DNA of 64,000 bases from contig JBAYIZ010000006.1 of NCBI GenBank assembly GCA_041665405.1, forward strand, positions 407 through 64,406, in the 5' to 3' direction. The notes under the pieces are model-generated. The model did not search any database. It was not told where the DNA came from and saw only the letters and a program-made list of their open reading frames with translations. Made by a program: the position numbers and the translations under genes. The stretch is from Candidatus Magasanikiibacteriota bacterium. GTDB taxonomy: Bacteria; Patescibacteriota; Patescibacteriia; Magasanikbacterales; GWA2-37-8. This document shows, piece by piece, positions 879-63,660 of this stretch. Within the stretch, counting starts at the first letter, position 1, and every line of letters begins with the position of its first letter.

Positions 879-3386
879 TCAACCCCTCTTTATAATTCCT
901 GTCGCCAAACTGGCTACTTTTTTAATTCCCGCCATTAACAACGCCCCACGTGCTTTGGCTACAAAGCCCAACAGTAACGCCGTCAAACCACCAGCTGTAG
1001 TTGTAAAATACATTTTGGATGTTTCGGTTTGTTTATTTTGATCATTCGCTATGCGACTGGCCAGCACTTCATCGCTATAACCAACTACTTTGATATCAGA
1101 CAACGCTCGTGGCAAAATCTGCCAACCGTCTTTACCTTGATTTAATATCCCAATTATTTCCACCTTGTCTCCTTCTTTCAACTCCTGTTTATTAATTTGC
1201 GCTCCTTTTTTGAAATAAACCGCGACCTCGGTCACACCGTCATCTACGTACATCAGCGTGCTTTTTATTTCCGTTATATCACCAGATATTTTTACCAATC
1301 CGCCTAACATTTCCTCTGAGATATCTTCAATTTTCAAATCAATCGGTTCAATAATTTTATTTGTTGATAAAACATTGATTGCATATTTATTTTTTATCCT
1401 GATTCTTTTTACGCCGCCAACGATAGCAGCCTCTCCCCCGACAGAAATGTAATCACCAATTTTTAATTCTGGAAAATCTTTTTTATATTGATAAATTTGA
1501 AAACCGTTTTGATCATCATCGCTAACATAAAAAAATTGTTGACCAAAAGTCTTTGGCTCTACGGTTACTGATCCGCGTACGGACAACCAATTTACTGTCG
1601 TCTTGGCAGAAGTTGTTTTTGTTTCTTTGGTTGCACTTTTTTCTGTTTTTAATACAACTTTATATACTTCTTTATCATTGGGTGATATTAAAATTATTTC
1701 ATCACCATCTTTATCAAAACTAAGATGGTGAACTGCTCTAAAAAATTTTAAAGTTCCTGAAGCCACTATAGTGGTGTTTACTGGTATCTCATATTCCTTG
1801 CCACTTTTATTTTTTATTTTCCAACCAGATATATTTTGTGACTTATCCAAATAATTGGTGAGTTCAATATACTCTTCCATATCTTCTGTACTGGTAGTAT
1901 ACCAACCACTAATTTTCATATTGGCATTAGCCACAGAAAAGTTTGGCCCAACATAAACTTTAAATTCTTTTTTACCAGTTGTACCAGCGCTACTAGAAGC
2001 CGTCACTGAAACCAAATATATTCCTGAAGTGGCAAATGAATGCCCAGATAAATATCCTGTACTACTAAAGTTATCACCAAAATTCCAAAAATAATTTACT
2101 TCGCCACCGCGTGGATCGGCACTACCTTTGACACTAAAGATTCCTATCTCACCCACATCCAAACCATATGGGAAATCATATTTCCAACTAATGTTGACTG
2201 GGTCTTTTGTTTCAACAATATTAGTTTTTGTAGTGGTCGATGTTTTTGTTGTTTTTGTTGTTTTGGTTGATGTGGTTGAAGTAATTATATGTCCGTTGGT
2301 GTTATCATTCGCTGAGCTACCACCACTATTACCGCCAGTATTCAGATTGACGATAGGAACCACTAACTCGTTGGCAGTTCCTAGAGTTATCTTGTTGGTG
2401 ACCGCCCAATCACTATCCGTGCCAGTATCAAAACCGTCTATTTTTCTAATTAACGACTGTCCTTTATCAGTAATAAGTGAGTTGCTTTCACTATAATCAA
2501 TTCTATCCACGACAGCACCATTGTCATCCTTTAATATCACCGAATCACCACCATTATTAAGATAGCCTCCAGTCAACAAATCAACTATTAGCCAGTCATA
2601 ACCACCGATTCTGCCATTTGCTGGTTTACAATTACTATCCGAAGAATCACAAATCAAACCACTAGATAAATCTACTGTACTTGAACTATTATTATATAGC
2701 TCAATCTGTTCGTTTCCCTCAACTGGATCTGATACAATTTCATTTAATTTTATAAAACTCCAATCAAAAATACTGTCAGAAGAGGTAGACATGTCCATAG
2801 TAGAAGACGACTCTGCTGTAGTAGTAGCGGTGGTAGTAGTGAAATTAATATCAACTATTGAATAATTGCTATTTTGTGCACCCACAGTATTGCCAACAGA
2901 ATTTTCCTGCCAATTATCCAAACTATAATTATCTAAAAATGGATTTCTTCTTTCTAATGAAAAATTTGTGGTAGATACATAACTAAACTTTTCTACAAAA
3001 TTATCCATTTCATCCTTTAAACCAATCTCTTCGCTGTTTTCACTCAAACTTGTCCAAGAAGAATCAAATACTGAACCGATAAAATTGGGATGATCTAACA
3101 TAAATATATCGGCGTCCTGACAAATCACCCCATATTCACCAGACAATATCATACTATCAGTTGAAGTCGTCGCCTTGAGATTGTGTTTGGTACTATTTTC
3201 CCAAAATTTCCAATCTTTAATATCAATCGAGTCTGCTCCCCGATTCCAAATCTCAATCCATTCATGAGTGCTCGTTGGATAGGCACCAATCTCATTTATG
3301 ATAATATCCGTATTGGCCGCCAATAATTTTTGCCCAATAAAAAAACTGCCAAATATAAAGACAGCAACCAAAATAAAATATTTCAT
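879..3386 (-). CDS. secreted cell-surface protein with two lamin-tail (LTD) domains and Thr-rich linkers (835 aa)
   Basis: Signal peptide MKYFILVAVFIFGSFFIG. LTD-like motifs IINEIGAYPTSTHEWIEIWN and LNEIVSDPVEGNEQIELYN. Long Thr/Ser tracts and a C-terminal hydrophobic segment. Confidence 0.7.
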   Translation of the reverse strand: MKYFILVAVFIFGSFFIGQKLLAANTDIIINEIGAYPTSTHEWIEIWNRGADSIDIKDWKFWENSTKHNLKATTSTDSMILSGEYGVICQDADIFMLDHPNFIGSVFDSSWTSLSENSEEIGLKDEMDNFVEKFSYVSTTNFSLERRNPFLDNYSLDNWQENSVGNTVGAQNSNYSIVDINFTTTTATTTAESSSTMDMSTSSDSIFDWSFIKLNEIVSDPVEGNEQIELYNNSSSTVDLSSGLICDSSDSNCKPANGRIGGYDWLIVDLLTGGYLNNGGDSVILKDDNGAVVDRIDYSESNSLITDKGQSLIRKIDGFDTGTDSDWAVTNKITLGTANELVVPIVNLNTGGNSGGSSANDNTNGHIITSTTSTKTTKTTKTSTTTKTNIVETKDPVNISWKYDFPYGLDVGEIGIFSVKGSADPRGGEVNYFWNFGDNFSSTGYLSGHSFATSGIYLVSVTASSSAGTTGKKEFKVYVGPNFSVANANMKISGWYTTSTEDMEEYIELTNYLDKSQNISGWKIKNKSGKEYEIPVNTTIVASGTLKFFRAVHHLSFDKDGDEIILISPNDKEVYKVVLKTEKSATKETKTTSAKTTVNWLSVRGSVTVEPKTFGQQFFYVSDDDQNGFQIYQYKKDFPELKIGDYISVGGEAAIVGGVKRIRIKNKYAINVLSTNKIIEPIDLKIEDISEEMLGGLVKISGDITEIKSTLMYVDDGVTEVAVYFKKGAQINKQELKEGDKVEIIGILNQGKDGWQILPRALSDIKVVGYSDEVLASRIANDQNKQTETSKMYFTTTAGGLTALLLGFVAKARGALLMAGIKKVASLATGIIKRG

Positions 3387-3440
3387 ACCCCCAATAAAAA
3401 ATATATTAATGGTTTTAATTATATCAAATTTTAATAAAAA

Positions 3441-3470
3441 AGAAAGCCTCTTATTTAAGAGGCTTTTTCT
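3441..3470. terminator. bidirectional intrinsic terminator (AAAGCCTCTTATTTAAGAGGCTTT, flanked by A-run and T-run)
   Basis: 8-bp GC-containing stem between convergently ending ORFs; A-run upstream and T-run downstream. Confidence 0.6.
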
Positions 3471-3900
3471 TTAATTTTTTTAATATGTCCATCGGTTTTT
3501 CTTTGTGCAAATTTCCCAAATAAACACACTTTATTTTTTTAACAAGCACAGCTGGTAATGTTTTTTTAATATCCAACATGATTTCGGTTGGAGCAAACAA
3601 ATACACCGCACTAAATTTTTGTTCACCAGATATTTGTTTCACAAAGTCTTTAACCAAAACTAGAAAATCGCTATGTTTTGATCTCTTCATTTTTTCTATC
3701 TTTGAGCCAGATTCAAACACCAATGATCCACGTCTGCCAAAGTTTTCACGATCAGAATAATGGCTTTTTAATAAAGTGACCTGCCCCGCTTGCGCAATCT
3801 CTCCTTCGCTGGCGATATAAAAATTTGCCGCTTGAGTACCTGATACTACCAATAAGGCACTTTCATTTATAAACTGATGTAATTGTGCTGAAATTTTCAT
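3451..3900 (-). CDS. hypothetical protein (149 aa)
   Basis: Complete ORF; no confident family assignment from the sequence. Confidence 0.45.
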   Translation of the reverse strand: MKISAQLHQFINESALLVVSGTQAANFYIASEGEIAQAGQVTLLKSHYSDRENFGRRGSLVFESGSKIEKMKRSKHSDFLVLVKDFVKQISGEQKFSAVYLFAPTEIMLDIKKTLPAVLVKKIKCVYLGNLHKEKPMDILKKLKKKPLK

Positions 3901-3921
3901 ATAATCAATTCGAGATATGAA

Positions 3922-4905
3922 TTAATTTAATGGTTCAACTAATGGCATATCAGTATTGGCTGGTTTTGGTTTGTATAATTCCGGATCAATTTTGCGGTTA
4001 AAACAAGTACGTTCTGCTTGATGGCTCCAATTCTGGTTGAAGGAATCAAATGGCTTAGGATAGGCCGGAAGAGTGTTGAAATTATTATCACTCACTGTTA
4101 CAAAGTTAGCACACAACTCAAAATTATATTGATTAATAATGCGATATTCATAATCTAGTTTAGTTTGAGGATCGGTCGGTACCACAAAACCAGAGATGCT
4201 GTCGTTTAGCTGTATTACCTCTCCAGGCAATTCAGACTTTTGAGTCCAATAATTTAAAATCTGATTTTGTATTGTCTGCAAATCCTGTATGCGTTGTTCA
4301 TCAAAGCGGCGATTGCGTTGTTCAAATGGAGTGCCTACAACAAAAAATCCGGCCACTACACTTCCCAGCGCCAAAACCAATAAAATCCCTGCCAAAAGTT
4401 TTGGAACACGAGAAATTAATTCTTTGCGTTTCAAATCCCACATATAATATCCAAAGACTGCTCCCGCTACCAACAACACTATCAAAATCTTTAAAAAGAA
4501 ACGGGTAGTAATCTCACCGCTTAAGAAATTATAAACCAGAATAATCAAATCAACAATTATAGTAACTGCGGAAACAAAAAGTGTAAAATACACTAACCAT
4601 TTTCTTAATTTGAATTCGCGCTTTTCTGGATTAGCATATAAATCTTTGGCCAACAACCAGGCTGTTATCAAATATGCCGGCACCGCAATCAATAAAATAG
4701 ATGACGCCACCCGTACCGACTCGGCAATACCAGTATAATAATAATTCAATGCATCAGGAAATAGCGCATTGATATACTGAAGATACAATGTAATAAAACC
4801 AATAACACTCAAATAAAAAGTCAAAATGTTAAATAGGTGCAAAAACACATCTTTTGGTGTACTGCTCGCTTTTACGACACTCGGTTGCATGTTTGAGTTT
4901 TCCAT
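3922..4905 (-). CDS. integral membrane protein (about 5 TM helices N-terminal, soluble C-terminal domain), hypothetical
   Basis: Multiple hydrophobic helices (FLHLFNILTFYLSVIGFITLYL, ILLIAVPAYLITAWLL, WLVYFTLFVSAVTIIVDLIILVY, etc.). Confidence 0.6.
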   Translation of the reverse strand: MENSNMQPSVVKASSTPKDVFLHLFNILTFYLSVIGFITLYLQYINALFPDALNYYYTGIAESVRVASSILLIAVPAYLITAWLLAKDLYANPEKREFKLRKWLVYFTLFVSAVTIIVDLIILVYNFLSGEITTRFFLKILIVLLVAGAVFGYYMWDLKRKELISRVPKLLAGILLVLALGSVVAGFFVVGTPFEQRNRRFDEQRIQDLQTIQNQILNYWTQKSELPGEVIQLNDSISGFVVPTDPQTKLDYEYRIINQYNFELCANFVTVSDNNFNTLPAYPKPFDSFNQNWSHQAERTCFNRKIDPELYKPKPANTDMPLVEPLN

Positions 4906-9554: not shown

Positions 9555-10769
9555 TTAAAAATTTATAAATTCTTTAAACCTATCTTCAAAAATAGCTTGC
9601 CGTGCCTGACGCATAAGCTCCAACATAAAATGCACATTATGGATGGTAGCCAAACGCAAACCAGTAATTTCTTGTGCTACAAATAAATGGTGTAAATAAG
9701 CGCGAGAATAATTTTTGCAAGTTGAACAAGCGCAGTCTTTACTAATTGGAGAAAAATCTTTGATAAACGCGGAGTTTTTTATATTCAAACGACGTTTCGG
9801 GTCCTCGGCAGTCGTAACAAACAACATACCGTGTCGAGCCAAACGAGTTGGTGCTACACAATCAAACATATCCGCACCACCAGCTACCACTTTGAGCAAA
9901 TCCTCTGGATCCAAACCGACACCCATAGTGTATCGTGGCTTATCTTTTGGTAATAATGGAGTAATCCAATCCAAAATATTTTTGGTAGCTTCCATGTTGT
10001 AGCCAATGCTTTCACCGCCAATTGCGATACCATCAAAATCTAAACTGGCAATATATTTAGCCGATTCTTTGCGCAGATCTTCATGATTGGCACCCTGAAT
10101 AATACCAAATAAAAATTGTTTGTATTCTTTCGGCACTGTCATCCCCGACTTGATCGGGGATCTATCATCACTAGATTCCCGCTTCTGCGGGAATGACAAA
10201 CGCTTATGTTCGTCCACACATCTTTTTGCCCAGCGATGAGTGCGATCCATAGCTTCCTTTGTATATTTATAATCTGCATCATCAGGGGTACATTCATCAA
10301 AAGCCATAATAATATCCGCACCAATCTTGTGTTGGCACAAAGTAGCGGACTCTGGTGTAAAACGATGAGTAGAGCCGTCAATATGAGATTGAAATGTCAC
10401 GCCGTCTTCATCTATTTTTACCAATTTACCTTGATCTTTGGTGTCGCTTTTTTCTTTTTGCAATCCTAATGAAAAAACCTGAAAACCACCAGAATCAGTC
10501 AAAATCGCCCGGTCCCAATTCATAAATTTGTGCAAACCACCAGATTGAGCAACCAAATCTTCACCCGGTCTCAAATGCAAATGATAGTTATTGGCCAAGA
10601 TAATTTTTGGGTCCAAAATAGCTAGGTCGTTTTGATCTAGGGTTTTAACTGTGGCCTGTGTGCCAACTGGCATAAAGACCGGAGTTTCAATATCTCCATG
10701 GTCGGTATGCAAAATACCGGCTCTGGCACCAGTTTTTTTATCTTCGTGGATTAGTTCAAAAAATGACAT
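9555..10769 (-). CDS. tgt: queuine tRNA-ribosyltransferase (tRNA-guanine transglycosylase) carrying an in-frame 57-nt palindromic-element insertion
   Basis: Tgt hallmarks: MSFFELIHEDKKTGARAG, DSGGFQVFSL, and the zinc site CACSTC...H. An extra segment SFPQKRESSDDRSPIKSGM is encoded by the palindromic repeat at 10141-10200. Confidence 0.9.
   Translation of the reverse strand: MSFFELIHEDKKTGARAGILHTDHGDIETPVFMPVGTQATVKTLDQNDLAILDPKIILANNYHLHLRPGEDLVAQSGGLHKFMNWDRAILTDSGGFQVFSLGLQKEKSDTKDQGKLVKIDEDGVTFQSHIDGSTHRFTPESATLCQHKIGADIIMAFDECTPDDADYKYTKEAMDRTHRWAKRCVDEHKRLSFPQKRESSDDRSPIKSGMTVPKEYKQFLFGIIQGANHEDLRKESAKYIASLDFDGIAIGGESIGYNMEATKNILDWITPLLPKDKPRYTMGVGLDPEDLLKVVAGGADMFDCVAPTRLARHGMLFVTTAEDPKRRLNIKNSAFIKDFSPISKDCACSTCKNYSRAYLHHLFVAQEITGLRLATIHNVHFMLELMRQARQAIFEDRFKEFINF
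10141..10200. repeat. palindromic repeat element R1 copy a (two hairpins: ATCCCCGA...TCGGGGAT and ATTCCCGC...GCGGGAATGACA), in-frame inside tgt
   Basis: The GGATTCCCG-loop-CGGGAATGACA family is also at 11917-11945, 39021-39070 and 44707-44733. Local GC is far above the flanking tgt sequence. Confidence 0.7.
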
Positions 10770-11006
10770 ACTAATTATATTTAAGCCAATACTACGCTAT
10801 TTTGCACAAAAAATCAAGACAAACAAAAAACTTCCTATAAGAAGAAGTTTTTTCTATTCTCATGTCGTTAACAACAACAGGAAAATGGATGCCTGCTTTT
10901 TTGTACCGTGAGCGCAGGCGAATCTCACATATTTTCCTTGCGGCGACTAGCCACGCATTAATCACATGCGCAACTTATCAAGCCGAATTGTGTTGGTACG
11001 GCGCGA

Positions 11007-11420
11007 TCAGCGCGCCTTGGGGGCGGCTGCTTCTCGCAGTTCGGCCAGCTTCCTGTCTACCTTTGGGGTGCCGAGGTGTTGCTTGGCCGCGAACACGAGC
11101 TTTGCGCGGGCAGATTGCACCGCCCTGTTCGAAGGACGACGGCCGGGTGGAGTCAAAGCCACCACCGCCTGCAACATTGCCTCCGTCGTCTGCTCGTCAC
11201 CCTGCTTGTACTCCCTGAGCGTGAACAGGACCTTCTCCACCTTCTCGTGGAGATCCCAGGACTCGCGCCAATACGGCCTGTCTTCGCCGGAATGGAACTT
11301 GTCGAGCATGGAGTGAGCCCTCCTCGACCTGAAGTAGCAAAGGACCAACACAAGCATCGACACGATGTTCACCGCAACACTGATACTGTGCCACATAGAA
11401 ATCCCCACTTCCTTCACCAT
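11007..11420 (-). CDS. small GC-rich protein with N-terminal TM helix (137 aa from MVKEV), hypothetical; GC island 1
   Basis: About 60% GC versus about 35% background; high GC3. Start at the internal ATG at 11420. The other overlapping ORFs in this island look like GC artefacts (S/R-rich). Confidence 0.45.
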   Translation of the reverse strand: MVKEVGISMWHSISVAVNIVSMLVLVLCYFRSRRAHSMLDKFHSGEDRPYWRESWDLHEKVEKVLFTLREYKQGDEQTTEAMLQAVVALTPPGRRPSNRAVQSARAKLVFAAKQHLGTPKVDRKLAELREAAAPKAR

Positions 11421-11571
11421 TGCTGACGAAGATGTTAGCTCTCTAGTTGGCGCGGGATGACACATCCACGCCCTTGCGACAAGCAAGCGGCAGCCCAGCT
11501 ACCTCTACTTTTTCCTTACCAAAAGAAAAACTAGCCGTAGCTTGGCCAAAATATATTTCAAAGAACGTGTA

Positions 11572-11678: not shown

Positions 11679-13715
11679 ATGATAAATTTTGAACAAGAAC
11701 TCAACCCGCAACAGCTGGACGTCGTGAAAAATGGCGACGGGCCTTGTTTGGTTTTAGCTGGGGCGGGATCGGGGAAAACTCGCACTATTACTTATCGGGT
11801 TGCCTATTTGTTGGAACAAGGTGTTGGCCCAGAAAATATTTTGTTGGTAACTTTTACCAATCGAGCGGCGAATGAAATGATTGAACGGGTAAGAAATTTG
11901 ATGAGTGGGGATTCCCGTTTGCACGGGAATGACATGCCGTGGTCAGGAACATTTCACCACATTGCCAATAAAATTTTACGACACTACGCACCACATTTAG
12001 GATACAAAAATAATTTTACTGTTTTGGATTCCGACGACAGCCAGGCGTTGATAAAATTGTGTATCAAAGAATTTAAAACCACCGAAAAATTTCCTTCGGC
12101 GAAAGTTGTGGGCGCAATTATTAGTTTTGCTCGTAATTCTCAAAAAAGTATTGAAGAAGTAATTGAAGATAAATTTAATAGCTGGTGGCACCTGTCTAGA
12201 ACTATTGGCGATGTCAGCTCACGATACGAACAAAAGAAAAAAGAATCCAACGCAATGGATTTTGATGATCTACTAATTAATTTTGCATTGTTATTAAACA
12301 CCCCAGCAATTCAAGAAAAGTTTTCCAATCAATTCAAATATATTTTGGTAGATGAGTATCAAGACACCAACAAACTACAAGCGAATATTATTGATAAATT
12401 AGCCAAAATACACCGTAATTTGTTGGTAGTTGGTGATGACGCCCAAAGTATTTATTCTTTCCGTGCGGCTGATATAAAAAATATTTTAAATTTTGAAGAA
12501 AAATATTCTGATGCGAAAATTTTTCGTTTGGAAATAAATTATCGTTCTCACCAAGAAATTTTGTCTTTGGCCAATAATGTTATCGCCAACAATCGTCATC
12601 AATATCCAAAAAAATTAAAAGCAGTAAAAGAAAATGGCATAAAACCAAATTTATATCCAAAAAATGATCAATCCGACGAAGCGAGTTTTATTGTAAAAAA
12701 AATAAATGAACTGATTGAACAAGGAACTCCAGAACACAAAATCGCTGTGCTGTTTCGTGCCGCTCATCATTCTCAAATGCTCGAAATGGAATTAGCCAAA
12801 GCAGGAATCGCTTATGATTATCGTGGCGGTTTGCGATTTTTTGAACGCGCTCACATCAAAGATGTTTTGAGTTATCTCAGAATATTAAATAATTTATCTG
12901 ACACCTCTGCGTGGTTGCGTATTCTCCAACACGAAGAAGGAATCGGACCGTCGGCTGCCAATAAAATTATTTCTGCCGTGCAAAAACTAGAAAAAATTGA
13001 TGACATAAAAAATCTTGGGGAAGTTTTAGGTGGAAAAACCCAAACCGGTTTTAATAATTTCTTAAAAATTTTTAATGCTCTCTTGGAATCGTATATTCCA
13101 GAAAGCAGCCCTGGTGATTTAATCCAATCCATTATCAGTTCGAATTATAGCGACTATTTGGAAGCAGAATTCATAGATAGTGATGACCGAAAAAAGGATT
13201 TGGAACAAATGGCCACCTTTGCCACCAAACACAAAAATTTATCTGATTTTTTGGCCGAATCTAGTTTGCAAGAGTCGTTTGCCCACCCGACATCCAACCA
13301 AACACAGACAAACAACCAAAAAAGGTTGGTGCTTTCCACTATTCATCAGGCCAAAGGACTGGAGTGGGAAGCGGTTTTTATAATCAATGTAGCCAACGAC
13401 GCCTTTCCCAACAGTCGTGCTTTGGCCGAAAGTGAAGGTCTGGAAGAAGAACGCCGTTTGTTTTATGTCGCTATTACTCGTGCCAAAAAACACTTAATTT
13501 TGACTTATCCAATGTCAAATGAGGGTTGGGGCTCCTCGCTGGGCGGTCCAAGCTTGTTTTTGTCTGAAATTAGCCAAGATTTGATTGATGACCACTCATT
13601 ATTATCCTATAAAAGCACTGTTTTTGATAAAAATGAAGAAATTCAATATATTAACGAAGATGAACCAATAAATATCCAACCTGGTAGTTTTTTGCGCAGT
13701 ATTGATGACTTATAA
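11679..13715 (+). CDS. UvrD/PcrA-family ATP-dependent DNA helicase carrying an in-frame palindromic-element insertion
   Basis: Walker A LVLAGAGSGKTRTITYR, helicase motifs through TIHQAKGLEWEAVF. The extra SGDSRLHGNDM near GTFHHIANKIL is encoded by repeat R1 at 11917-11945. Confidence 0.9.
   Translation: MINFEQELNPQQLDVVKNGDGPCLVLAGAGSGKTRTITYRVAYLLEQGVGPENILLVTFTNRAANEMIERVRNLMSGDSRLHGNDMPWSGTFHHIANKILRHYAPHLGYKNNFTVLDSDDSQALIKLCIKEFKTTEKFPSAKVVGAIISFARNSQKSIEEVIEDKFNSWWHLSRTIGDVSSRYEQKKKESNAMDFDDLLINFALLLNTPAIQEKFSNQFKYILVDEYQDTNKLQANIIDKLAKIHRNLLVVGDDAQSIYSFRAADIKNILNFEEKYSDAKIFRLEINYRSHQEILSLANNVIANNRHQYPKKLKAVKENGIKPNLYPKNDQSDEASFIVKKINELIEQGTPEHKIAVLFRAAHHSQMLEMELAKAGIAYDYRGGLRFFERAHIKDVLSYLRILNNLSDTSAWLRILQHEEGIGPSAANKIISAVQKLEKIDDIKNLGEVLGGKTQTGFNNFLKIFNALLESYIPESSPGDLIQSIISSNYSDYLEAEFIDSDDRKKDLEQMATFATKHKNLSDFLAESSLQESFAHPTSNQTQTNNQKRLVLSTIHQAKGLEWEAVFIINVANDAFPNSRALAESEGLEEERRLFYVAITRAKKHLILTYPMSNEGWGSSLGGPSLFLSEISQDLIDDHSLLSYKSTVFDKNEEIQYINEDEPINIQPGSFLRSIDDL
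11917..11945. repeat. palindromic repeat element R1 copy b (GGGATTCCCGTTTGCACGGGAATGACA) in-frame inside uvrD/pcrA
   Basis: Same ATTCCCG...CGGGAATGACA inverted-repeat motif as in tgt and two intergenic sites. Confidence 0.7.
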
Positions 13716-25155: not shown

Positions 25156-25240
25156 AAAGGGTAACTTTTTCGCTTTTTTTGCCCGCGAGGGCAAAAGGAT
25201 GAGCCTCGGCTCATAACCCGCTCAAAAGTAACCCTTTGCT
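25156..25240 (+). ncRNA. structured repeat R2 copy A: conserved 54-nt core (CGCUUUUUUUGCCCGCGAGGGCAAAAGGAUGAGCCUCGGCUCAUAACCCGCUC) closed by a copy-specific outer stem
   Basis: The core recurs at 38665-38718 and 48363-48415 with compensatory changes in two internal hairpins (GNRA loop GCGA; tetraloop CUCG/CGCG). The outer stem here is GGGUAAC.../...GUAACCC. Confidence 0.55.
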
Positions 25241-35047: not shown

Positions 35048-36172
35048 TTATTGTCTTATCGGCATCACTATATAAACAAAACTGTCGTCGTTGGTTGGTA
35101 CAAAGAGACACGGGCTGTCTGCGTTTATCATTTTCAGCATACTGGTTTCTGATTTAATATTATTTAAACCATCCAAAACATATCGGTGGTTCAACATAAT
35201 AGCATTGTCGTCGCCGTTTGTTTCCGCACTTATTTCAGAACTATATTCACCCGTCTGGGAAGAAGTGGAGGAAAGTTTTACGACGCCTTCTTTACTACTA
35301 ATTATACAAGATATAGCGTTTACACCTATTGTGGTAAACAAACTGGCCATTTTAATTTCTTTACTCATCTTTCCAGTATCAAACATCGCAGATGTTTTGA
35401 ATTCTTTTGGTATAATTTGTGCATAGTCTGGATAATTTCCTTCTACTAAGCGAGAAACTAGTTGAATATTACCGTAGTGCATAGCAATTTGATTCTCTCC
35501 AACTAATATTCTAACGTTTTTTTCTTTTTCTTCATTATCCGCTAACGACAGTATGTGGATTATTTCTTGAGCAGTTCTACCCGGAACAATAATTTTAAAA
35601 TCTCCTTCTCCTTGTTGAATTTTAATTTTCTTTTCAGCCAATCTATAACTATCTGTAGCCGCCAATATTAAACCGGCATAATATGAAGTATTAAATCCAA
35701 AATACATTCCTGATAATTCCGGTCTTATTTCTGATTTAGCCAAAGAGGAAACAGTTTGTCCTAGTCCGCTCTTTAGTTGTTCTGCATCAAACAAAAATCC
35801 ATTTCCATCACTTACAGAAGGAATAACTGGAAATTCGTCAGCTGGTATTCCTTTTATTTTCGTTGATGATTTTCCACAGGTTATAACTAGCTCATTTTCT
35901 TTTAATTCCATTTCAATCTTTTCGTCAGAAAGTAAACTAACAAATTCACTAAGTGTTTTGGAAGGAACTGTAAACGAACCAGATTCATCCACTTTTGATC
36001 TCACGTGAGCAACTATTGCCAATTCTAGATTGGTTGCAATTATTTCTGTTTTTTGATCATCTGCTTTAATCAATATATTTCCCAGTATTGGAAGATTCAC
36101 ATTTTTATTTGCTATCCCTCCTACTATAGAAAGTGCTTTCGATAAATTATCTTTTGTACAAGTTATTTTCAT
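35048..36172 (-). CDS. dnaN: DNA polymerase III beta sliding clamp
   Basis: Three-domain clamp, 374 aa, immediately downstream of dnaA. Confidence 0.9.
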   Translation of the reverse strand: MKITCTKDNLSKALSIVGGIANKNVNLPILGNILIKADDQKTEIIATNLELAIVAHVRSKVDESGSFTVPSKTLSEFVSLLSDEKIEMELKENELVITCGKSSTKIKGIPADEFPVIPSVSDGNGFLFDAEQLKSGLGQTVSSLAKSEIRPELSGMYFGFNTSYYAGLILAATDSYRLAEKKIKIQQGEGDFKIIVPGRTAQEIIHILSLADNEEKEKNVRILVGENQIAMHYGNIQLVSRLVEGNYPDYAQIIPKEFKTSAMFDTGKMSKEIKMASLFTTIGVNAISCIISSKEGVVKLSSTSSQTGEYSSEISAETNGDDNAIMLNHRYVLDGLNNIKSETSMLKMINADSPCLFVPTNDDSFVYIVMPIRQ

Positions 36173-36447
36173 AAAGGATGGTGCGGGTTACATTATTTAA
36201 TTAAGTATATATATAAAATAATAATAGTAATAAGGCTGTGGAAAGGGTTAATAAGTCGTTTTTTGTTTTCAAATTAGCCAAGTTTAAGGTGAATAATTTT
36301 TTAACAGTTTGGTATAAAAGTGTGTGTGAAAAACGATTTATTTAAGTTTATTTATTTTCTGTTGATAAGTGGTTGACTTGTTCTTTTTATATTAACAACT
36401 TATTAACATTCTTTGCACACCATTTAGCGAAGAAAAAAAACCATGTT
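36173..36447. other. dnaA-dnaN intergenic region, probable oriC segment with AT-rich unwinding element
   Basis: Very AT-rich tract TATATATATAAAATAATAATAGTAATAA plus a DnaA-box-like TGTTGATAA. Confidence 0.4.
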
Positions 36448-37842
36448 TTAGATATTATTGATATATAAACGCTGTCTTATTAATTCTAGTTCTTGTTTTA
36501 GTTTTAAATCATTATCTATTTCTTTGGTAATTTTTTCGTTGGCATGCATCGCTGTGGTGTGATCGCGTCCGCCCAGCTCATCGCCAATGGAAGGGAAAGA
36601 CATTTTAAGATCATTACGCAAAATATACATAATAATCTGGCGAGGATAAGAGAGCTTCTTTTCTCGGCTTTTACCACAAACATTTTCGGTGGAAACATTG
36701 AAAAAGGTGCAAACAGTCTCTATGGTCTGTTGTGATGTGACTGAACGTCTAGCCGAAGCAGAATCAAAACTAGAAAGAATTGATTTTACTGATTCGGCTG
36801 TCGGGGCCATATTTTTTAATTGATGATAAGCAATAATTTTATTTAGGGCGCCTTCAAGCTCACGAATGTTGCTCTGAACAATAGTAGCAACTGTATTTAG
36901 GGTTTTGTCGTCCAAAACAAAATTCTTTTCTTGGCACTTTTTGCCCAAAATAGCGACACGTGTTTCAAAATCAGGGGCAGAAACATCCACAATCATTCCC
37001 CACTCGAAGCGAGATTTGAGGCGATCCTCAAGGGCAGGGATGGCTTTTGGTGGGCGGTCAGAAGTTAAAATTACCTGCTTGTTTGCCTGGTGGAGCTCGT
37101 TAAAAGTATGAAAAAACGATTCTTGGCTGGCATCTTTGCCAGCGATGAACTGAATATCATCAATTAACAAAGCGTCGATAGTACGATAGCGGTTTTGGAA
37201 GTCTCTCGCTCCACCACTACGCAAAGAAGTAATAAAATCGTTGGTAAATTTCTCAGCACTAACATACAAGATATTGGTTTGAGGGTTTTTTTTCAACAAT
37301 TCATTGCCAACCGCCTGTAAAAGATGGGTTTTCCCCAAACCTACACCACCGTAGATAAACAGTGGATTGTAGGCCTCACCAGGACGGTCTGCCACTGCCT
37401 TGGCGGCGGTGAAAGCCAATTCGGAGCCTTTGCCAACCACAAAACTATCAAAATTGTATTTTGGGTTAATGGTAAATCCATGAGAAGCGACAGATTGGTG
37501 ACTAGTTTGTTGAGAGTATGAAGGTGTTTTTTCGTTTTCATGAGATACCGACGGGGAAGGAGGGGTGTTTATTGGTTGTTCCACAACATTTTTGATATTT
37601 TCGATCTTGTATTCCATCCTTCTAATAGGAAGGGCGGTGACCCTCTCTAAAGATTGGATGATTTGGTGGTGGTGTTTTTTTTCAATCCACGCCTGATTAA
37701 AGGTGTTTGGGACGCAGACAATAACATGGCCTTCTTGAAAACTAACAATACCAGTATTTTTGAACCAGGTGTTAAAATTCGCTTTGGAAATGGTTAATTC
37801 TAATTCAGATAAAACAGCCTGCCAAATTTCATTATTAGTCAT
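36448..37842 (-). CDS. dnaA: chromosomal replication initiator DnaA
   Basis: Walker A GGVGLGKTHLL and the C-terminal DNA-binding domain. Confidence 0.95.
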   Translation of the reverse strand: MTNNEIWQAVLSELELTISKANFNTWFKNTGIVSFQEGHVIVCVPNTFNQAWIEKKHHHQIIQSLERVTALPIRRMEYKIENIKNVVEQPINTPPSPSVSHENEKTPSYSQQTSHQSVASHGFTINPKYNFDSFVVGKGSELAFTAAKAVADRPGEAYNPLFIYGGVGLGKTHLLQAVGNELLKKNPQTNILYVSAEKFTNDFITSLRSGGARDFQNRYRTIDALLIDDIQFIAGKDASQESFFHTFNELHQANKQVILTSDRPPKAIPALEDRLKSRFEWGMIVDVSAPDFETRVAILGKKCQEKNFVLDDKTLNTVATIVQSNIRELEGALNKIIAYHQLKNMAPTAESVKSILSSFDSASARRSVTSQQTIETVCTFFNVSTENVCGKSREKKLSYPRQIIMYILRNDLKMSFPSIGDELGGRDHTTAMHANEKITKEIDNDLKLKQELELIRQRLYINNI

Positions 37843-38017
37843 AGATTGATAGTTTTATAAAACTTTTATGTTATTTTAGCACAGAAACACATCTATTAAA
37901 ACGTCGGAAATTAGCTAAAAGTGCAAAATATGTGGATAAACTGGGGATACTGTGGATTGTTGACTAAAAGCCGTTTATATGGTAATATATTCAACATAAT
38001 ACATTAAATAAAAAGGT
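37843..38017. promoter_or_regulatory. dnaA upstream region with DnaA boxes (TGTGGATAA at 37931-37939; TGTGGATTG at 37951-37959) and a divergent rpmH promoter TTGACT-17-TAATAT
   Basis: A perfect TTATCCACA (on the opposite strand) plus a 1-mismatch box; classic oriC/dnaA promoter arrangement. Confidence 0.5.
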
Positions 38018-38197
38018 ATGGCAACTAAACGAACTTATCAACCAAGTAAAAAACATCGTGCAAAAGCACACGGATTCATGGAAAGAATGTCCACAAAGAA
38101 TGGACGGACAGTACTTTCTAGACGTCGTGCCAAGGGGCGCAAGAAGCTAACAGTGTCAGATGAAAAATCTGGAAAATTGTTAAGAAAAGCCAAATAA
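38018..38197 (+). CDS. rpmH: 50S ribosomal protein L34
   Basis: Own translation: [46 protein letters not shown]... (59 aa, below the ORF-track cutoff). RBS AAAAGGT. Confidence 0.85.
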
Positions 38198-38202
38198 TCT
38201 TA

Positions 38203-38231
38203 AACCCCCGATTGAATCGGGGTTTTTATTT
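38203..38231 (+). terminator. intrinsic terminator after rpmH (AAACCCCCGATTGAATCGGGGGTTTTT)
   Basis: 8-bp GC stem plus T-run. Confidence 0.7.
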
Positions 38232-38245
38232 GGTATAATATTGTT

Positions 38246-38641
38246 ATGTATAGAAAAGAAAACCATTTGACCAAGGTGCGAGATTTCAATCTCGTTTTAA
38301 AACAAGGATATTGGATAAATGATCTGTTTTTTAGTTTAAAAGTATTAGACTTAGCCAAAAAAGAGGCTTATTTTCCACCCAAAGAAGATAAGGATAAGTT
38401 CAAAAAACAGCTTAAGTTAGCGGTGAATGTTGGGTTAAAGGTGTCTAAAAGTGCTGTTGTGCGCAATCGGGCAAAAAGGCAGGTTGTGGAGGTGTTGAGG
38501 GCGATGATGGCCAAAGATGAAATATTGGAAGGGTATTATTTGTTTTTTGTGGCGAAGCCGAATATCAAGGAGAAAAGTTTTGCTGAGATAAGCGATGAAG
38601 TGAAACTATTATTGCAAAAGGCAAACGTGCTAAAGAGGTAA
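38246..38641 (+). CDS. rnpA: ribonuclease P protein component
   Basis: Basic protein with RNR motif VVRNRAKRQVVEV; conserved rpmH-rnpA synteny. Confidence 0.85.
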   Translation: MYRKENHLTKVRDFNLVLKQGYWINDLFFSLKVLDLAKKEAYFPPKEDKDKFKKQLKLAVNVGLKVSKSAVVRNRAKRQVVEVLRAMMAKDEILEGYYLFFVAKPNIKEKSFAEISDEVKLLLQKANVLKR

Positions 38642-38743
38642 TTTAAAAAACTTTTATTTTATTTCGCTTTTTTTGCCCGCGAGGGCAAAAGGATGAAGCC
38701 GCGGCTTCATAACCCGCTCAATTAAAATAAAAGTTTTTTAAAT
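38640..38743 (+). ncRNA. structured repeat R2 copy B filling the whole rnpA-yidD spacer
   Basis: Same core as 25171-25224, with a compensatory extra A-U pair in hairpin 2 (AUGAAGC-CGCG-GCUUCAU). It sits inside a 22-bp AT-rich outer stem (AATTTAAAAAACTTTTATTTTA.../...TAAAATAAAAGTTTTTTAAATT) that reaches the yidD start. Confidence 0.55.
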
Positions 38744-38744
38744 T

Positions 38745-39020
38745 ATGCCTAAAAACCTTCTTTATTACATTAAACAAGCAACTATATTTTTGGGAATGCC
38801 GATTGTTTTTTTGATTTGGGTTTATCAAAAAACATTTTCGCCGGATCATGGGCCGTTGAAAAGATTTTTTCCTTATGGGTATTGTCGGTTTTATCCTAGT
38901 TGTAGTGAATATGGAAAACAATCTATAAAAAAACACGGCCTGTTTGTTGGAACAATCAAGGCCGGGTGGAGATTGCTAAGATGTAATCCATGGAATAAAG
39001 GGGGGATGGATTTGCCGTGA
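38745..39020 (+). CDS. yidD: membrane protein insertion efficiency factor YidD
   Basis: YQKTFSPDHGPLKRFFPYGYCRFYPSCSEYGKQSIKKHG; conserved Cys pair. Confidence 0.85.
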   Translation: MPKNLLYYIKQATIFLGMPIVFLIWVYQKTFSPDHGPLKRFFPYGYCRFYPSCSEYGKQSIKKHGLFVGTIKAGWRLLRCNPWNKGGMDLP

Positions 39021-39070
39021 TTGTCATTCCCGTGAAAGCTTGTCCCCACGAAAGTGGGGACGGGAATCCG
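39021..39070. repeat. palindromic repeat element R1 copy c (nested hairpins GTCATTCCCG...CGGGAATCC around GTCCCCAC-GAAA-GTGGGGAC)
   Basis: Fills the convergent yidD/yggU spacer; same ATTCCCG/CGGGAAT arms as the other copies. Confidence 0.65.
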
Positions 39071-39073
39071 TTC

Positions 39074-39301
39074 CTAATTTTCAATCTCAATCATTTTATT
39101 TTTGCTCGTGTTGCCGGACACGATTTTTATTTTGCTTTTTGAAATATTAAAATAATCGGCGAGTAATTTTATTAAGGCGTCGTTCGCTTTTCCATCGACG
39201 GGTGGAGCGGTGAGTTTTATTTTTAAAGTGCCATCGGACATTTTTCCGATGACTTCATTTTTTGAAGAGCGGGGGAGGACGCGGATTTTTAATTTTGGCA
39301 T
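39074..39301 (-). CDS. YggU/DUF167-family protein
   Basis: 75 aa, with VDGKAN and KIVSGNTSKNK motifs typical of UPF0235. Confidence 0.65.
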   Translation of the reverse strand: MPKLKIRVLPRSSKNEVIGKMSDGTLKIKLTAPPVDGKANDALIKLLADYFNISKSKIKIVSGNTSKNKMIEIEN

Positions 39302-44700: not shown

Positions 44701-44706
44701 GTTTGA

Positions 44707-44733
44707 GGATTCCCGCTTTCGCGGGAATGACAA
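44707..44733. repeat. palindromic repeat element R1 copy d (GGATTCCCGCTTTCGCGGGAATGACAA)
   Basis: Lies between the hppA stop and its terminator. It is translated in a spurious ORF as IPAFAGMTT. Confidence 0.65.
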
Positions 44734-44752: not shown

Positions 44753-46747
44753 TTATTTTAGTAATAACCCTACAATTAACAGTGCTACGATATTAGCCAC
44801 CTTTATCATCGGATTGATAGATGGACCAGCAGTGTCTTTATATGGATCACCAACAGTGTCACCAGTGACAGCGGCTTGATGTGCAAAAGAACCCTTGCCA
44901 CCATAATTTCCAAGTTCAATATATTTTTTTGCATTATCCCAAGCGGCACCACCAGTAGTCATAGAAATAGCTACGAAAATACCAGTGACAATTGTTCCTA
45001 CCAACAAACCACCCAACGCTTCGATACCCAAGAAGTAACCAACCAAAATTGGCACGACCACAGGAATCAAAGATGGCACAATCATTTGTCCGATAGCTCC
45101 TTTGGTAACAATATCTACAGCTTTGCCGTAGTCTGGTTTTCCAGTGCCCTCCATAATTCCAGCGATTTCACGGAACTGACGACGAACTTCTTCAACTACT
45201 TGTCCGGCAACTTTACCAACAGATTCCATCAACATAGCACCAAACAAATATGGCAACAAACCACCAATAAATAATCCAACTAAAACTTTTGGATCATTAA
45301 TTAAAAATTGATATGAATCAGGAAGCTTGTGAGTGAAGTCAGCAAACAAAACTAGTGAAGCCAAACCAGCAGAGGCAATCGCATATCCTTTGGTCACAGC
45401 TTTGGTAGTATTACCAACTGCGTCTAGAGGATCAGTAACATTGCGTACGTCTTGAGACAGCTCAGCCATCTCTGCGATACCACCAGCATTATCAGTGATA
45501 GGTCCAAAAGCATCAATAGTAACGATAATACCAGCCAAAGACAACATACTAACTGCGGCCACAGCCACGCCGTACAAACCAGCTAAATAGTGAGAACCCA
45601 TCATGGCGGCCATAATCAAAAGTACTGGCAAAGCAGTGGACTTCATGGAAACAGCCAAACCAGCAATCACATTGGTACCATGACCAGTAGTACTAGCTTT
45701 GGCAATATGTTGAACTGGAGAATATTTTGTTGAAGTATAATAATCTGTCAAAGCTACCATCAAAGCAGTGAGTACCAAACCGATAATAGCACAATAAAAA
45801 ATGTTCATTACACTATATCCAACCAAACCACTCATCAACCATTTTGTAGCTGGATAAAAACCAATCAAAGCAATTACGCCAGCGGCAATTAATCCCTTGT
45901 ACAATGCTTTCATTACATTTTTGTCTTCACCTAATCGGATGAAGAATGTTCCTAATATAGAAGCGACGATAGAAATACCACCAAGCACAATTGGATAAAC
46001 TGCAACTTTATCATTGCTTGGGAAAAGTAATCCGCCCAAAATCATTGCGGCGATAGTAGTGATAGCATAAGTTTCAAAAAGATCGGCGGCCATACCAGCA
46101 CAGTCACCAACATTGTCCCCGACGTTGTCGGCAATCACAGCTGGATTGCGTGGATCATCTTCTGGAATTCCTTTTTCTACTTTGCCAACCAAGTCTGCAC
46201 CCACATCAGCGGCTTTGGTAAAGATACCACCACCGATACGAGCAAAAATTGAAATTAAACTTCCGCCAAAACCTAAACCAATCAAAGCGGACAAATCATG
46301 TGTTAAATAATAAAAACCAGAAACACCGAGTAGCCCCAAACCAGAAACTAACAAGCCAGTAACCGAACCACCTTTTACAGCCACATCAAGCGCTGGTTTG
46401 AAACCTTTTTTTGCGGCCTCAGCAGTACGCACGTTGGCTTTGACCGAAACCAACATACCAATAGTACCTGCCAAGCCAGAAAATACTGCACCCACTACGA
46501 AACCAAAAGCAGTAATCCAATCGATAGATAGTCCTAATAAAATAAAAACGATTACAGCGACATAAGCGATTGTCTTGTATTGTCGAGAAAGATAAGCTTT
46601 GGCACCATCTTGGATGGCACGAGCGATTGCCTGCATGCGATCATCGCCAGCTGGCTGTTTGAGAACCCAACGAATAAGCACACCGCCGTAAATGATGGCG
46701 ATAAGTGCTGGTAAAATTCCGCCTAACACTATAATCATAAGTGTCAA
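44753..46747 (-). CDS. hppA: membrane-bound proton/sodium-translocating pyrophosphatase
   Basis: [19 protein letters not shown] and [21 protein letters not shown] signatures; 16 TM helices; 664 aa. Confidence 0.9.
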
Positions 46748-48341: not shown

Positions 48342-48443
48342 CATCCCAGACAATGACTTTTTCGCTTTTTTCGACCGCGAGGTCGAAAGGATGAGCCTCG
48401 GCTCATAACCCGCTCAAAAGTAATTGTCTGGGATGTTTTTTTG
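48342..48443 (+). ncRNA. structured repeat R2 copy C immediately 3' of tRNA-Cys; outer stem + T7 acts as an intrinsic terminator
   Basis: Core 48363-48415 has compensatory hairpin-1 changes (CGACC-GCGA-GGUCG versus GCCC-GCGA-GGGC). It lies inside a 16-bp stem CATCCCAGACAATGAC/GTAATTGTCTGGGATG followed by TTTTTTT. Confidence 0.55.
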
Positions 48444-56226: not shown

Positions 56227-56260
56227 CAAAAAACCGATTGCAATATGCAGTCGGTTTTTT
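56227..56260 (+). terminator. conserved intrinsic terminator AAAAAACCGATTGCAATATGCAGTCGGTTTTTTT (family shared by TrmB paralogs)
   Basis: 8-bp stem with a G-U pair plus T-run. Near-identical copies at 61128-61162 and 63041-63076. Confidence 0.65.
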
Positions 56261-61127: not shown

Positions 61128-61162
61128 ACAAAAAACCGATTGCAGATTGCAGTCGGTTTTTT
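61128..61162 (+). terminator. conserved TrmB-paralog terminator AAAAAACCGATTGCAGATTGCAGTCGGTTTTTT
   Basis: Same family as 56227 and 63041. Confidence 0.65.
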
Positions 61163-61308
61163 GATAACTTCTTGAGCTCAACAAGATGTTGGAGTGAATG
61201 AGCGGTCACTACCAGCCGCGTGACTTTTTGTTTTACCGGTAGTCACAAACCGGATGATCCCAGACCCCTCATCAGCGGACCATTGAATTGTCCTGAAACT
61301 TTGCACCT

Positions 61309-63040: not shown

Positions 63041-63076
63041 CAAAAAACCGATTGCGATATGCAGTCGGTTTTTTAA
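63041..63076 (+). terminator. conserved TrmB-paralog terminator AAAAAACCGATTGCGATATGCAGTCGGTTTTTT
   Basis: Same family as 56227 and 61128. Confidence 0.65.
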
Positions 63077-63168
63077 TTACTTCTTGAACCAAAATGATTT
63101 AGTTCGAAAAGTAGCTGCGCGTCTTTTTGACCGGGACGCGCAACCGGGTGAGAGGGTGGAACCGGACG

Positions 63169-63660
63169 TCACAGGAATGCGATTCCCAGTGACGGCTGGA
63201 ACAGCAACGAGTAATCGCCGCCATCCAGGGTCTTCGCCAGTCCAAATGCCATGGACAGCGACAGACCGTTTCCGATTCCGTAGGCCAGGCCGGTGCCCAG
63301 ACCAACCAAGTCGGAAGACGGCTTGCCGCCGTAACCGACATTGCGCTGGTAGAGCACGCTGGCCTGGGTGGACCAACGATCAGTCAGTCCCAGCGACACA
63401 CCTGCAGAGAGGCGTGGGCTGGGCTTGCAACTGTCGTTGGGGGTGGCCAGCCCGATTCCGCCCGCGATGGACACCTTGTTGGAGACCTTCTCCGACAGCG
63501 AGATGTCGTAGCGGGTGGAGGCCGAGGCGGGGGTGAGCCCGTCCTTCAGGAGGACGACGTAGCCCTCCCGGATGTTGAAGACCGGGGTCAGGGCGCTGGC
63601 CGAAGCCGAGACACCGCTCAGAACCACGGCCACCAGGACGATCAGGGTGGAGATCTTCAT
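63169..63660 (-). CDS. GC-rich secreted beta-barrel OMP-like protein (163 aa); GC island 6
   Basis: Signal peptide MKISTLIVLVAVVLSGVSASASA, Gly-rich amphipathic strands, C-terminal ...LGIAFL aromatic terminus; SD GAGGTG. About 62% GC. Confidence 0.5.
   Translation of the reverse strand: MKISTLIVLVAVVLSGVSASASALTPVFNIREGYVVLLKDGLTPASASTRYDISLSEKVSNKVSIAGGIGLATPNDSCKPSPRLSAGVSLGLTDRWSTQASVLYQRNVGYGGKPSSDLVGLGTGLAYGIGNGLSLSMAFGLAKTLDGGDYSLLFQPSLGIAFL

Follow-up and report, generated by a model that had tools for sequence, protein, structure and literature searches.

The dRS3 repeat of Neisseria and the RPE-6 repeat of Rickettsia have been grouped together as CGTC-tagged repetitive extragenic palindromes (REPs), family CGTC-1 (Di Nocera et al. 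2013, PMC3733652). REPs of this group possess stems of 8-9 bp, loops of 4-5 nt and a short tail, with TGTC as a variant of the tag; inverted dimers are frequent, no dedicated transposase is known to serve them, and they are not associated with RAYT genes (PMC3733652). Copies that lie in frame within genes encode 8-30 residues, and intragenic copies are strikingly concentrated in UvrD/Rep, UvrABC, RecBCD, PolA and tRNA-modification genes (PMC3733652). The survey that established these points covered five phyla, with no member of the candidate phyla radiation (CPR, or Patescibacteria) among them (PMC3733652). Described here are repeat units of this kind in a CPR bacterium with a genome of ~38% GC, one of which forms an in-frame insert in a UvrD/PcrA-family helicase. 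The DNA analyzed is a 64-kb stretch (the window), corresponding to positions 4420-68419 of metagenome contig k141_170678 (97.6 kb, European Nucleotide Archive sample ERZ27249449).

Among the closest known relatives is the NTS of Neisseria, CGTCATTCCCGCGMAVGCGGGAATCYRG, which contains the older dRS3 motif ATTCCC-N8-GGGAAT (PMC11893778). Its partner protein SsnA is a 94-aa GIY-YIG protein that binds the hairpin only as single-stranded DNA (ssDNA) and makes its cut upstream; cleavage depends most on the upstream three bases, and binding on the C that follows the palindrome (PMC11893778). The ssnA gene is typically flanked by repeats in an NTS-ssnA-NTS arrangement, and related repeats, referred to generally as the “Ssn-related motif” (SRM), have been sought with the pattern HGTCWYN(0-2)YYVSBRHN(0-5)WNVSBRGN(0-2)RNCYNB (PMC11893778). 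For no member of the family has it been established how copies arise at new sites (PMC11893778, PMC3733652).

The helicase gene occupies positions 11679-13715 of the window on the plus strand and encodes a protein of 678 aa with the insert at residues ~76-86. Its single repeat unit (11907-11934, minus strand) is composed of a TGTC tag, an 8-bp stem, a 4-nt loop and an ATC tail. On the coding strand, the string GGGATTCCCGTTTGCACGGGAATGACA is located at 11908-11934, where a perfect 8-bp inverted repeat, ATTCCCGT (11911-11918) and ACGGGAAT (11923-11930), encloses the loop TTGC. The minus strand reads TGTCATTCCCGT-GCAA-ACGGGAATCCCC with a C right after the palindrome, and the hairpin core can be written in general form as TGTCATTCCCGY...RCGGGAATC. 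As a single strand (TGTCATTCCCGTGCAAACGGGAATC), the hairpin is predicted to fold as ssDNA at -7.7 to -7.8 kcal/mol (z = -3.3 to -3.6). The 24-nt core is translated from the sense strand (GAT TCC CGT TTG CAC GGG AAT GAC) as DSRLHGND, within an in-frame reading of SGDSRLHGNDM immediately N-terminal to PWSGTFHH, and the peptide across the insert is SGDSRLHGNDMPW. A first-pass annotation of this DNA had reported the same in-frame peptide just before the GTFH motif, which is confirmed in the open reading frame (ORF) 11679-13715; the string that it reported is also real, but lies ~10 nt from the position of 11917-11945 that was assigned to it.

Altogether, five units at four loci are present in the window, three of them intragenic and two intergenic. 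The other two intragenic units lie 1.7 kb from the helicase copy in tgt, the gene for a queuine tRNA-ribosyltransferase of 404 aa (9555-10769, minus strand) that is 19 residues longer than its orthologues at this point. They form a 62-nt inverted dimer with TGTCAT tags at its outer ends. The left unit (10171-10198, minus strand), TGTCATTCCCGC-AGAA-GCGGGAATCTAG, encodes SFPQKRES, and the right unit (10137-10165, plus strand), which has a variant stem, TGTCATCCCCGA-CTTGA-TCGGGGATCTAT, encodes SPIKSGMT. The dimer as a whole contributes SFPQKRES-SDDR-SPIKSGMT at a net gain of 57 nt and folds at -17.7 kcal/mol (z = -6.2). As had been proposed earlier, the peptides of the two genes differ because the element is read in different orientation and frame: GAT TCC CGT... 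gives DSRLHGND in the helicase, while TCA TTC CCG... gives SFPQKRES, followed by SPIKSGMT, in tgt. Of the intergenic copies, a single unit (44705-44732, minus strand), TGTCATTCCCGC-GAAA-GCGGGAATCCTC, is found beside a terminator-like hairpin just beyond the 3′ end of the H+-pyrophosphatase gene (44753-46747, minus strand). The last is a long form (39022-39071, plus strand) with the same outer stem and a nested GTCCCCAC-GAAA-GTGGGGAC hairpin, and it occupies the 53-nt gap between the convergent yidD and DUF167 genes.

All five units share the layout TGTCAT-stem-loop-stem-ATC, in which neither the TGTC tag nor the C that follows the palindrome varies and the end reads GGGAAT-C or GGGGAT-C. Stems are perfect over 8 bp, loops are 4 or 5 nt long, and folding energies range from -7.7 to -9 kcal/mol (z = -3.3 to -5). 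Such palindromes are far more common than coincidence would allow, as the first-pass annotation had maintained: ATTCCCG-N(2-32)-CGGGAAT occurs four times in the window versus 0.01 expected from shuffles, and the SRM pattern is matched exactly by three units (the helicase copy, the tgt unit tgtB and the 44705 unit) versus 0.1 expected. Relative to the 28-nt NTS consensus, the tgt unit tgtA has two mismatches and the helicase copy five. Among 11 copies, compensatory double changes are seen at three of eight stem pairs (T-A to C-G, G-C to A-T and C-G to T-A), and stem cells are paired in 96.6% of cases versus 16-56% when the partner column is slid. By this evidence from sequence, the element is a member of the known family of CGTC/TGTC-tagged palindromic repeats, represented by dRS3/NTS in Neisseria, RPE-6 in Rickettsia and SRM generally. 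Rfam at gathering thresholds recognized only two tRNAs in the window and left the repeat unmatched.

The survey of repeats took in further loci besides the window, among them L001 (22 kb), L002, L003, L099 and L104, the last being an independently assembled Joint Genome Institute metagenome contig (Ga0172379). Copies in L001, L099 and L104 likewise begin with TGTCAT. L001 carries five clear units plus one AT-rich scan match, including another long form (L001:955-1000), while no units were found in L002 and L003. Units are paired as inverted dimers in tgt, at L001:955-1042 and in L099. Unrelated bacterial loci (L008-L087), ~1 Mb in all, yielded no more than two hairpins of this general form, so the repeat is not ubiquitous.

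The helicase that carries the insert is not a pseudogene, since its ORF is intact, its nearest orthologues are 79-82% identical over the full length, and every helicase motif is conserved. Its sequence is also matched at 100% identity by an NCBI protein of a Candidatus Magasanikbacteria metagenome-assembled genome. The insert is located in the loop that leads from the motif Ia helix (TFTNRAANEM...) to the W-x-GTFH strand. In an AlphaFold2 model of the protein (mean pLDDT 83.8), residues 61-75 form a helix, 76-88 a coil and 89-90 a strand, with pLDDT at 72-76 across the insert versus 85-94 on both sides. Of the points raised by the first-pass annotation, gene decay is thereby countered by an intact gene, and the model places the insert in a coil of lowered pLDDT. 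Alignment to PcrA (1PJR/3PJR) opens a five-residue gap exactly at the insert point, and inserts at the same point in orthologues reach ~35 residues. Clearly, this loop is permissive. In one further CPR orthologue (P0048), a repeat-encoded GDSRFRGNDS lies elsewhere, at residue 447 in the C-terminal half.

Comparison of filled and empty sites gives some history to these insertions. In the helicase, 60 of the 120 orthologues listed were aligned across the loop region, and nearly all have a loop of six residues (for example, LT-NTELPL-PW and LT-GTEQPL-PW), in the place of which the window has LM-SGDSRLHGNDM-PW. In nucleotide terms, ~12 nt of ancestral loop have given way to the 24-nt core plus a few bases of flank, for a net gain of 15 nt in the window and 21 nt in L104. 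The L104 helicase, which is 95% identical to that of the window in protein and 89% in nucleotide sequence, reads LT-NK-DSRLHGND-KVL-PW, and its core is identical at 24 of 24 positions. Since the same insert is found in an independent contig, it is not an assembly artefact, and the unit is shown to have entered the loop in an ancestor of the window and L104 populations. Alignment of window positions 11850-11957 with L104:6542-6655 reveals that the window is 6 nt shorter on the 3′ side and that 9 of 18 nt differ on the 5′ side. The flanks of the shared insert have therefore diverged far above the gene average (89% identity), which recalls the raised diversity reported to adjoin dRS3 in Neisseria. 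The tgt site is empty in L104 (DEHNK-NTSYHGYKQFLFG) and filled in the window (DEHKRL-SFPQKRESSDDRSPIKSGMT-VPKEYKQFLFG). Because L104 has the helicase copy and an empty tgt site, the two insertions were separate events, of which the tgt dimer is the younger; the earlier proposal of two independent insertions of one family thus holds.

Both loops have been used more than once. The tgt loop of L001 holds an insert unlike that of the window, and both this loop, which precedes LFGIIQG, and the helicase Ia-Ib loop have been hit repeatedly across CPR lineages. Repeat-type inserts in the helicase loop are known from at least five lineages: the single DSRLHGND unit of the window and L104; DSRFRGND, in the same frame, in L001/P0006; a decayed dimer in L004/L088; a dimer reading VIPAASGNP...WIPNQVGND in L099/P0054; and a dimer of the ATCCTGAGCG subfamily, CHPERSEGS...DSSHTQND, in P0043/P0060. 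L004, an 81%-identical relative, is on contig k141_1257714 of the metagenome that also yielded the window contig (ERZ27249449), so two related populations of Magasanikbacteria coexist whose inserts in this loop of the helicase differ. These observations support a dispersed repeat whose presence varies among related genomes and that has been mobile in this clade, a point on which the first-pass annotation is supported.

Clues to how it spreads come from viral DNA. A scan of IMG/VR with GTCATTCCCGY-N4-RCGGGAATC returned at least 120 viral or proviral contigs with an exact match (L110-L229), among them L127 with no fewer than 13 units over 13.5 kb. Among the matches listed, three have a GIY-YIG ORF between or beside units of the same core (L112:2778-3493, L152:880-1280 and L213:7780-8340), in DNA of 66-68% GC. 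The ORF of L112 matches Pfam PF01541 with E = 1.7e-14, and L213 provides the clearest arrangement, with one unit on each side of the GIY-YIG gene and the tags pointing outward. The tgt dimer shares this geometry with the pairs at L001:955-1042 and in L099, so that these dimers look like cassettes without the gene; the tgt dimer would correspond to an SRM-ssnA-SRM cassette that lacks ssnA. A small GIY-YIG ssDNA nuclease of the Ssn family, acting in trans, is the probable driver of the spread, and it would bind the hairpin on ssDNA and cut next to the GTC tag. The explanation judged likely overall is that a unit of this known family came to reside in a tolerant helicase loop, having spread probably through such a nuclease.

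The preservation of reading frame calls for nothing further. Since ORFs cover roughly 91% of the window, the majority of random insertions would fall in genes. Six-frame translation of the five units finds the core open in five of six frames, the closed one reading GAA-TGA across the tag, and the net gains observed are +15, +21, +33, +57 and +66 nt. Given that only stop-free insertions with a net length divisible by three would survive in tolerant loops of essential genes, no frame-keeping property of the element is required. Frame preservation is thus best explained by survivorship, and selection for frame, which the first-pass annotation had raised, is a needless assumption. The helicase copy would persist by virtue of a net length that is a multiple of three, a position in one of the five stop-free frames, and a predicted disordered surface loop as its target; with these three conditions for survival in place, DSRLHGND would be a passenger peptide rather than a designed one.

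Several points weigh against the explanation of nuclease-driven spread into a tolerant loop. Searches of contig positions 1-77450 and of related CPR loci totaling ~460 kb by regular expression, phmmer, tblastn with three Ssn proteins, a small hidden Markov model and Pfam turned up no GIY-YIG or Ssn gene, with only noise returned (E >= 0.45); Pfam annotations of the same DNA revealed no RAYT or other transposase either. As no Ssn gene was found in the DNA examined, the mode of spread is something we infer; neutrality of the DSRLHGND peptide is presumed. The sites themselves show no target-site duplication, in the helicase or in tgt, when filled and empty sites are compared in genomes that are ~11% diverged, and the target codons have been replaced (12 nt in the helicase, 24 nt in tgt) and not merely interrupted. 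Replacement without duplication is not like simple cut-and-paste, and the structure of the sites hints at a route by break repair or recombination over simple transposition. Finally, L104 and L001 share ARG-GTG directly 3′ of the unit, which could reflect common ancestry or transfer of an allele patch rather than independent insertion. A weak tblastn match to Ssn at 63150-63311 of the window was discarded, having no GIY-YIG domain in Pfam.

The sharing of ARG-GTG bears on an alternative history, in which the helicase loop received a single ancient insertion at the base of the Magasanikbacteria clade, followed by multiple losses, or by allele-patch transfer through recombination or natural transformation between co-occurring populations. 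The shared residues after the unit, ARG-GTG-(L)-P-W, would fit such a history, as would the neighbor-joining tree of the helicase, in which the window branches deepest, followed by L004; that is, the two deepest branches of the clade account for two of the three lineages with inserts, and their contigs come from one sample. The 120 nt to the right of the L001 insert are also 88% identical to the window, a tied best match, but the left flank is only 76% identical and not raised. Moreover, L001 is nested in an insert-free clade with support of 0.91-1.0, and insert-free helicases keep the loop length of the outgroup, a combination that fits several gains better than one gain and at least three exact losses, each of which would have had to restore the six-residue outgroup loop despite the altered flanks of filled sites. 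The inserts also differ in form (single units versus dimers, stem C-G versus T-A, and different subfamilies), and the tgt site proves at least one recent gain. A single ancient insertion is accordingly rated as rather unlikely. A second alternative concerns the role of the copies. NTS in Neisseria are reported to modulate integration of transforming DNA, and a mutator effect has been proposed for repair genes tagged by REPs; intragenic copies might be kept for a function, either as Ssn-recognized DNA marks of this kind or through altered activity of the repair helicase. Window and L104 share an identical 24-nt core in a gene of 89% identity with half of the 18 upstream nucleotides changed, but the chance of 24/24 identity at that level is ~6% and only suggestive. 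Compensatory changes have kept the stem, yet recent copying could also give perfect stems. The recurrence of REPs across phyla in the same classes of repair and tRNA-modification genes, the type IV pilus genes (T2SSE/T2SSF and pilins) just downstream of the helicase, and the reported prevalence of competence and pilus genes in Patescibacteria all favor a function, whereas the short, insert-free loop of most orthologues, close ones included, and the lack of an Ssn gene in the DNA searched count against it. Retention for function is, on balance, unlikely.

A stronger version, in which insertion is targeted because the element or nuclease recognizes something at both loops, or in which the intragenic copies are Ssn-read marks controlling uptake-driven recombination in naturally competent, genome-reduced CPR bacteria, is held to be quite doubtful. 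Mobilization as a classical GTAG-type REP or as a MITE, a miniature transposable element with inverted repeats, by a RAYT (IS200/IS605-type) or an insertion sequence (IS) transposase, would account for the short hairpin form, the inverted dimers and the intergenic copies adjoining 3′ ends of genes. The tag, however, is TGTC and not GTAG, Pfam found no Y1 or IS transposase in contig positions 1-77450, and the tgt dimer has the inverted ends of a MITE with no target-site duplication, again as judged between genomes ~11% diverged. Together with the lack of RAYT association among CGTC REPs (PMC3733652), this makes such a route highly improbable. As for a chance palindrome, ancestral helicase sequence or an assembly artefact, nothing beyond the short length of the unit speaks in their favor. 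The excess over shuffled sequence and the match to a published family argue against chance, absence from ~110 of the 120 orthologues listed against ancestry, and presence in an independent assembly against artefact; this set of explanations is already refuted and retains practically no probability.

Other features of the window deserve mention. The gap between tgt and the helicase gene measures 910 bp in the window versus ~75 bp in L002, L003 and L004, and is filled by a GC-rich island of ~600 bp (10900-11500; 57-67% GC in a genome of ~38%) with an ORF of 159 aa (11007-11486, minus strand) that has no Pfam match. The corresponding gap of L001 contains a 101-aa ORF, an AbiEi/AbiEii pair and one repeat unit, and the location looks like an integration hotspot. 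Small ORFs beside the intergenic copies and in the tgt-helicase gap match YidD, DUF167, RNase P protein or nothing in Pfam. The long-form repeat, directly 3′ of yidD, is in the region of the chromosomal origin (35048-39301), which comprises dnaN (35048-36172, minus strand), dnaA (36448-37842, minus strand), rnpA (38246-38641, plus strand) and yidD (38745-39020, plus strand), with the minimum of cumulative GC skew near 36 kb.

Hairpins of other kinds are present as well. Two identical 20-nt hairpins, TTTTGCCC-GCGA-GGGCAAAA, occupy the S7/EF-G gap (25177-25196) and the rnpA/yidD gap (38671-38690), and a similar one, TTTCGACC-GCGA-GGTCGAAA, follows tRNA-Cys (48369-48388). They may constitute a second small hairpin repeat or be conserved terminators. 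Near-identical, terminator-like hairpins, AAAAAACCGATTGC...GCAGTCGGTTTTTT, are found at 56228-56260, 61129-61163 and 63042-63074 amid clustered paralogues of TrmB-family regulators, the last two of the three directly 3′ of TrmB-family genes. Just outside the window, a 331-aa ORF (L006:13725-14720; contig 3086-4081) gives a weak match to LAGLIDADG_3 and may be a homing endonuclease.

The identification extends the dRS3/NTS/SRM family, and by implication its Ssn nucleases, to the CPR, with a core almost unchanged from that in Neisseria and Alphaproteobacteria. In essential genes, filled sites with a clean empty counterpart, such as tgt (filled here, empty in L104), are what is needed for working out how the repeat is copied. 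In practical terms, loop insertions in CPR housekeeping proteins that read DSRxxGND, SFPxxRES, VIPAxAGI or IPAxAGMT can be repeat-derived, which matters for annotation, alignments and phylogenies built from such proteins. Should the copies turn out to be marks read by Ssn, the repeat would be part of a host genome-maintenance system and not a passenger.

The elements most readily called to mind by in-frame inserts are the Rickettsia palindromic elements (RPE-1 and relatives), reportedly described by Ogata et al. in 2000 as palindromic repeats lying in frame in conserved genes. RPE-1 is 100-150 bp long and encodes ~30-50 residues. The present repeat resembles it in its in-frame position within conserved genes, its tolerance in surface regions and its variable presence among related genomes, but at 24-28 nt per unit, or 62 nt as a dimer, it falls outside that size class, a comparison made by description. 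GTAG REPs and REPINs are likewise short hairpins, often in inverted pairs and thought to be recognized as ssDNA hairpins; they differ in their association with RAYT, an HUH Y1 transposase, while the tag is TGTC in all window copies.

Agreement is much closer with the NTS of Neisseria. The NTS, given above, and the window tgt copy, TGTCATTCCCGCAGAAGCGGGAATCTAG, have nearly identical cores, both the GTC tag and the C that follows the palindrome are kept, and inverted pairs have outward tags as in NTS-ssnA-NTS. Differences lie in the host, here a CPR bacterium of 38% GC; in the tag, TGTC instead of CGTC; in location, with three of five window copies intragenic versus 2% of NTS in N. meningitidis (PMC11893778); and in the lack of an ssnA homologue in contig positions 1-77450 and ~460 kb of related CPR loci. 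The units also agree with the definition of CGTC-tagged REPs in their TGTC tag, 8-bp stem, 4-5-nt loop, inverted dimers and multicopy dispersal, the equivalence of RPE-6 and CGTC-1 being taken from the literature (PMC3733652) and not from sequence comparison here. This is therefore not a new kind of system: the repeat family is known, and in-frame copies in UvrD/Rep-type helicases were reported in 2013 (PMC3733652), so the mini-element of the first-pass annotation is not a new one. Literature searches found no report linking these repeats to CPR, and the novelty lies in the host (CPR), in a core that is nearly identical across very distant phyla, in the tgt site seen both empty and filled, and in the reuse of the same loops. 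To the 2013 survey, the present case adds empty and filled sites recognized from orthologues and the repeated use of one loop.

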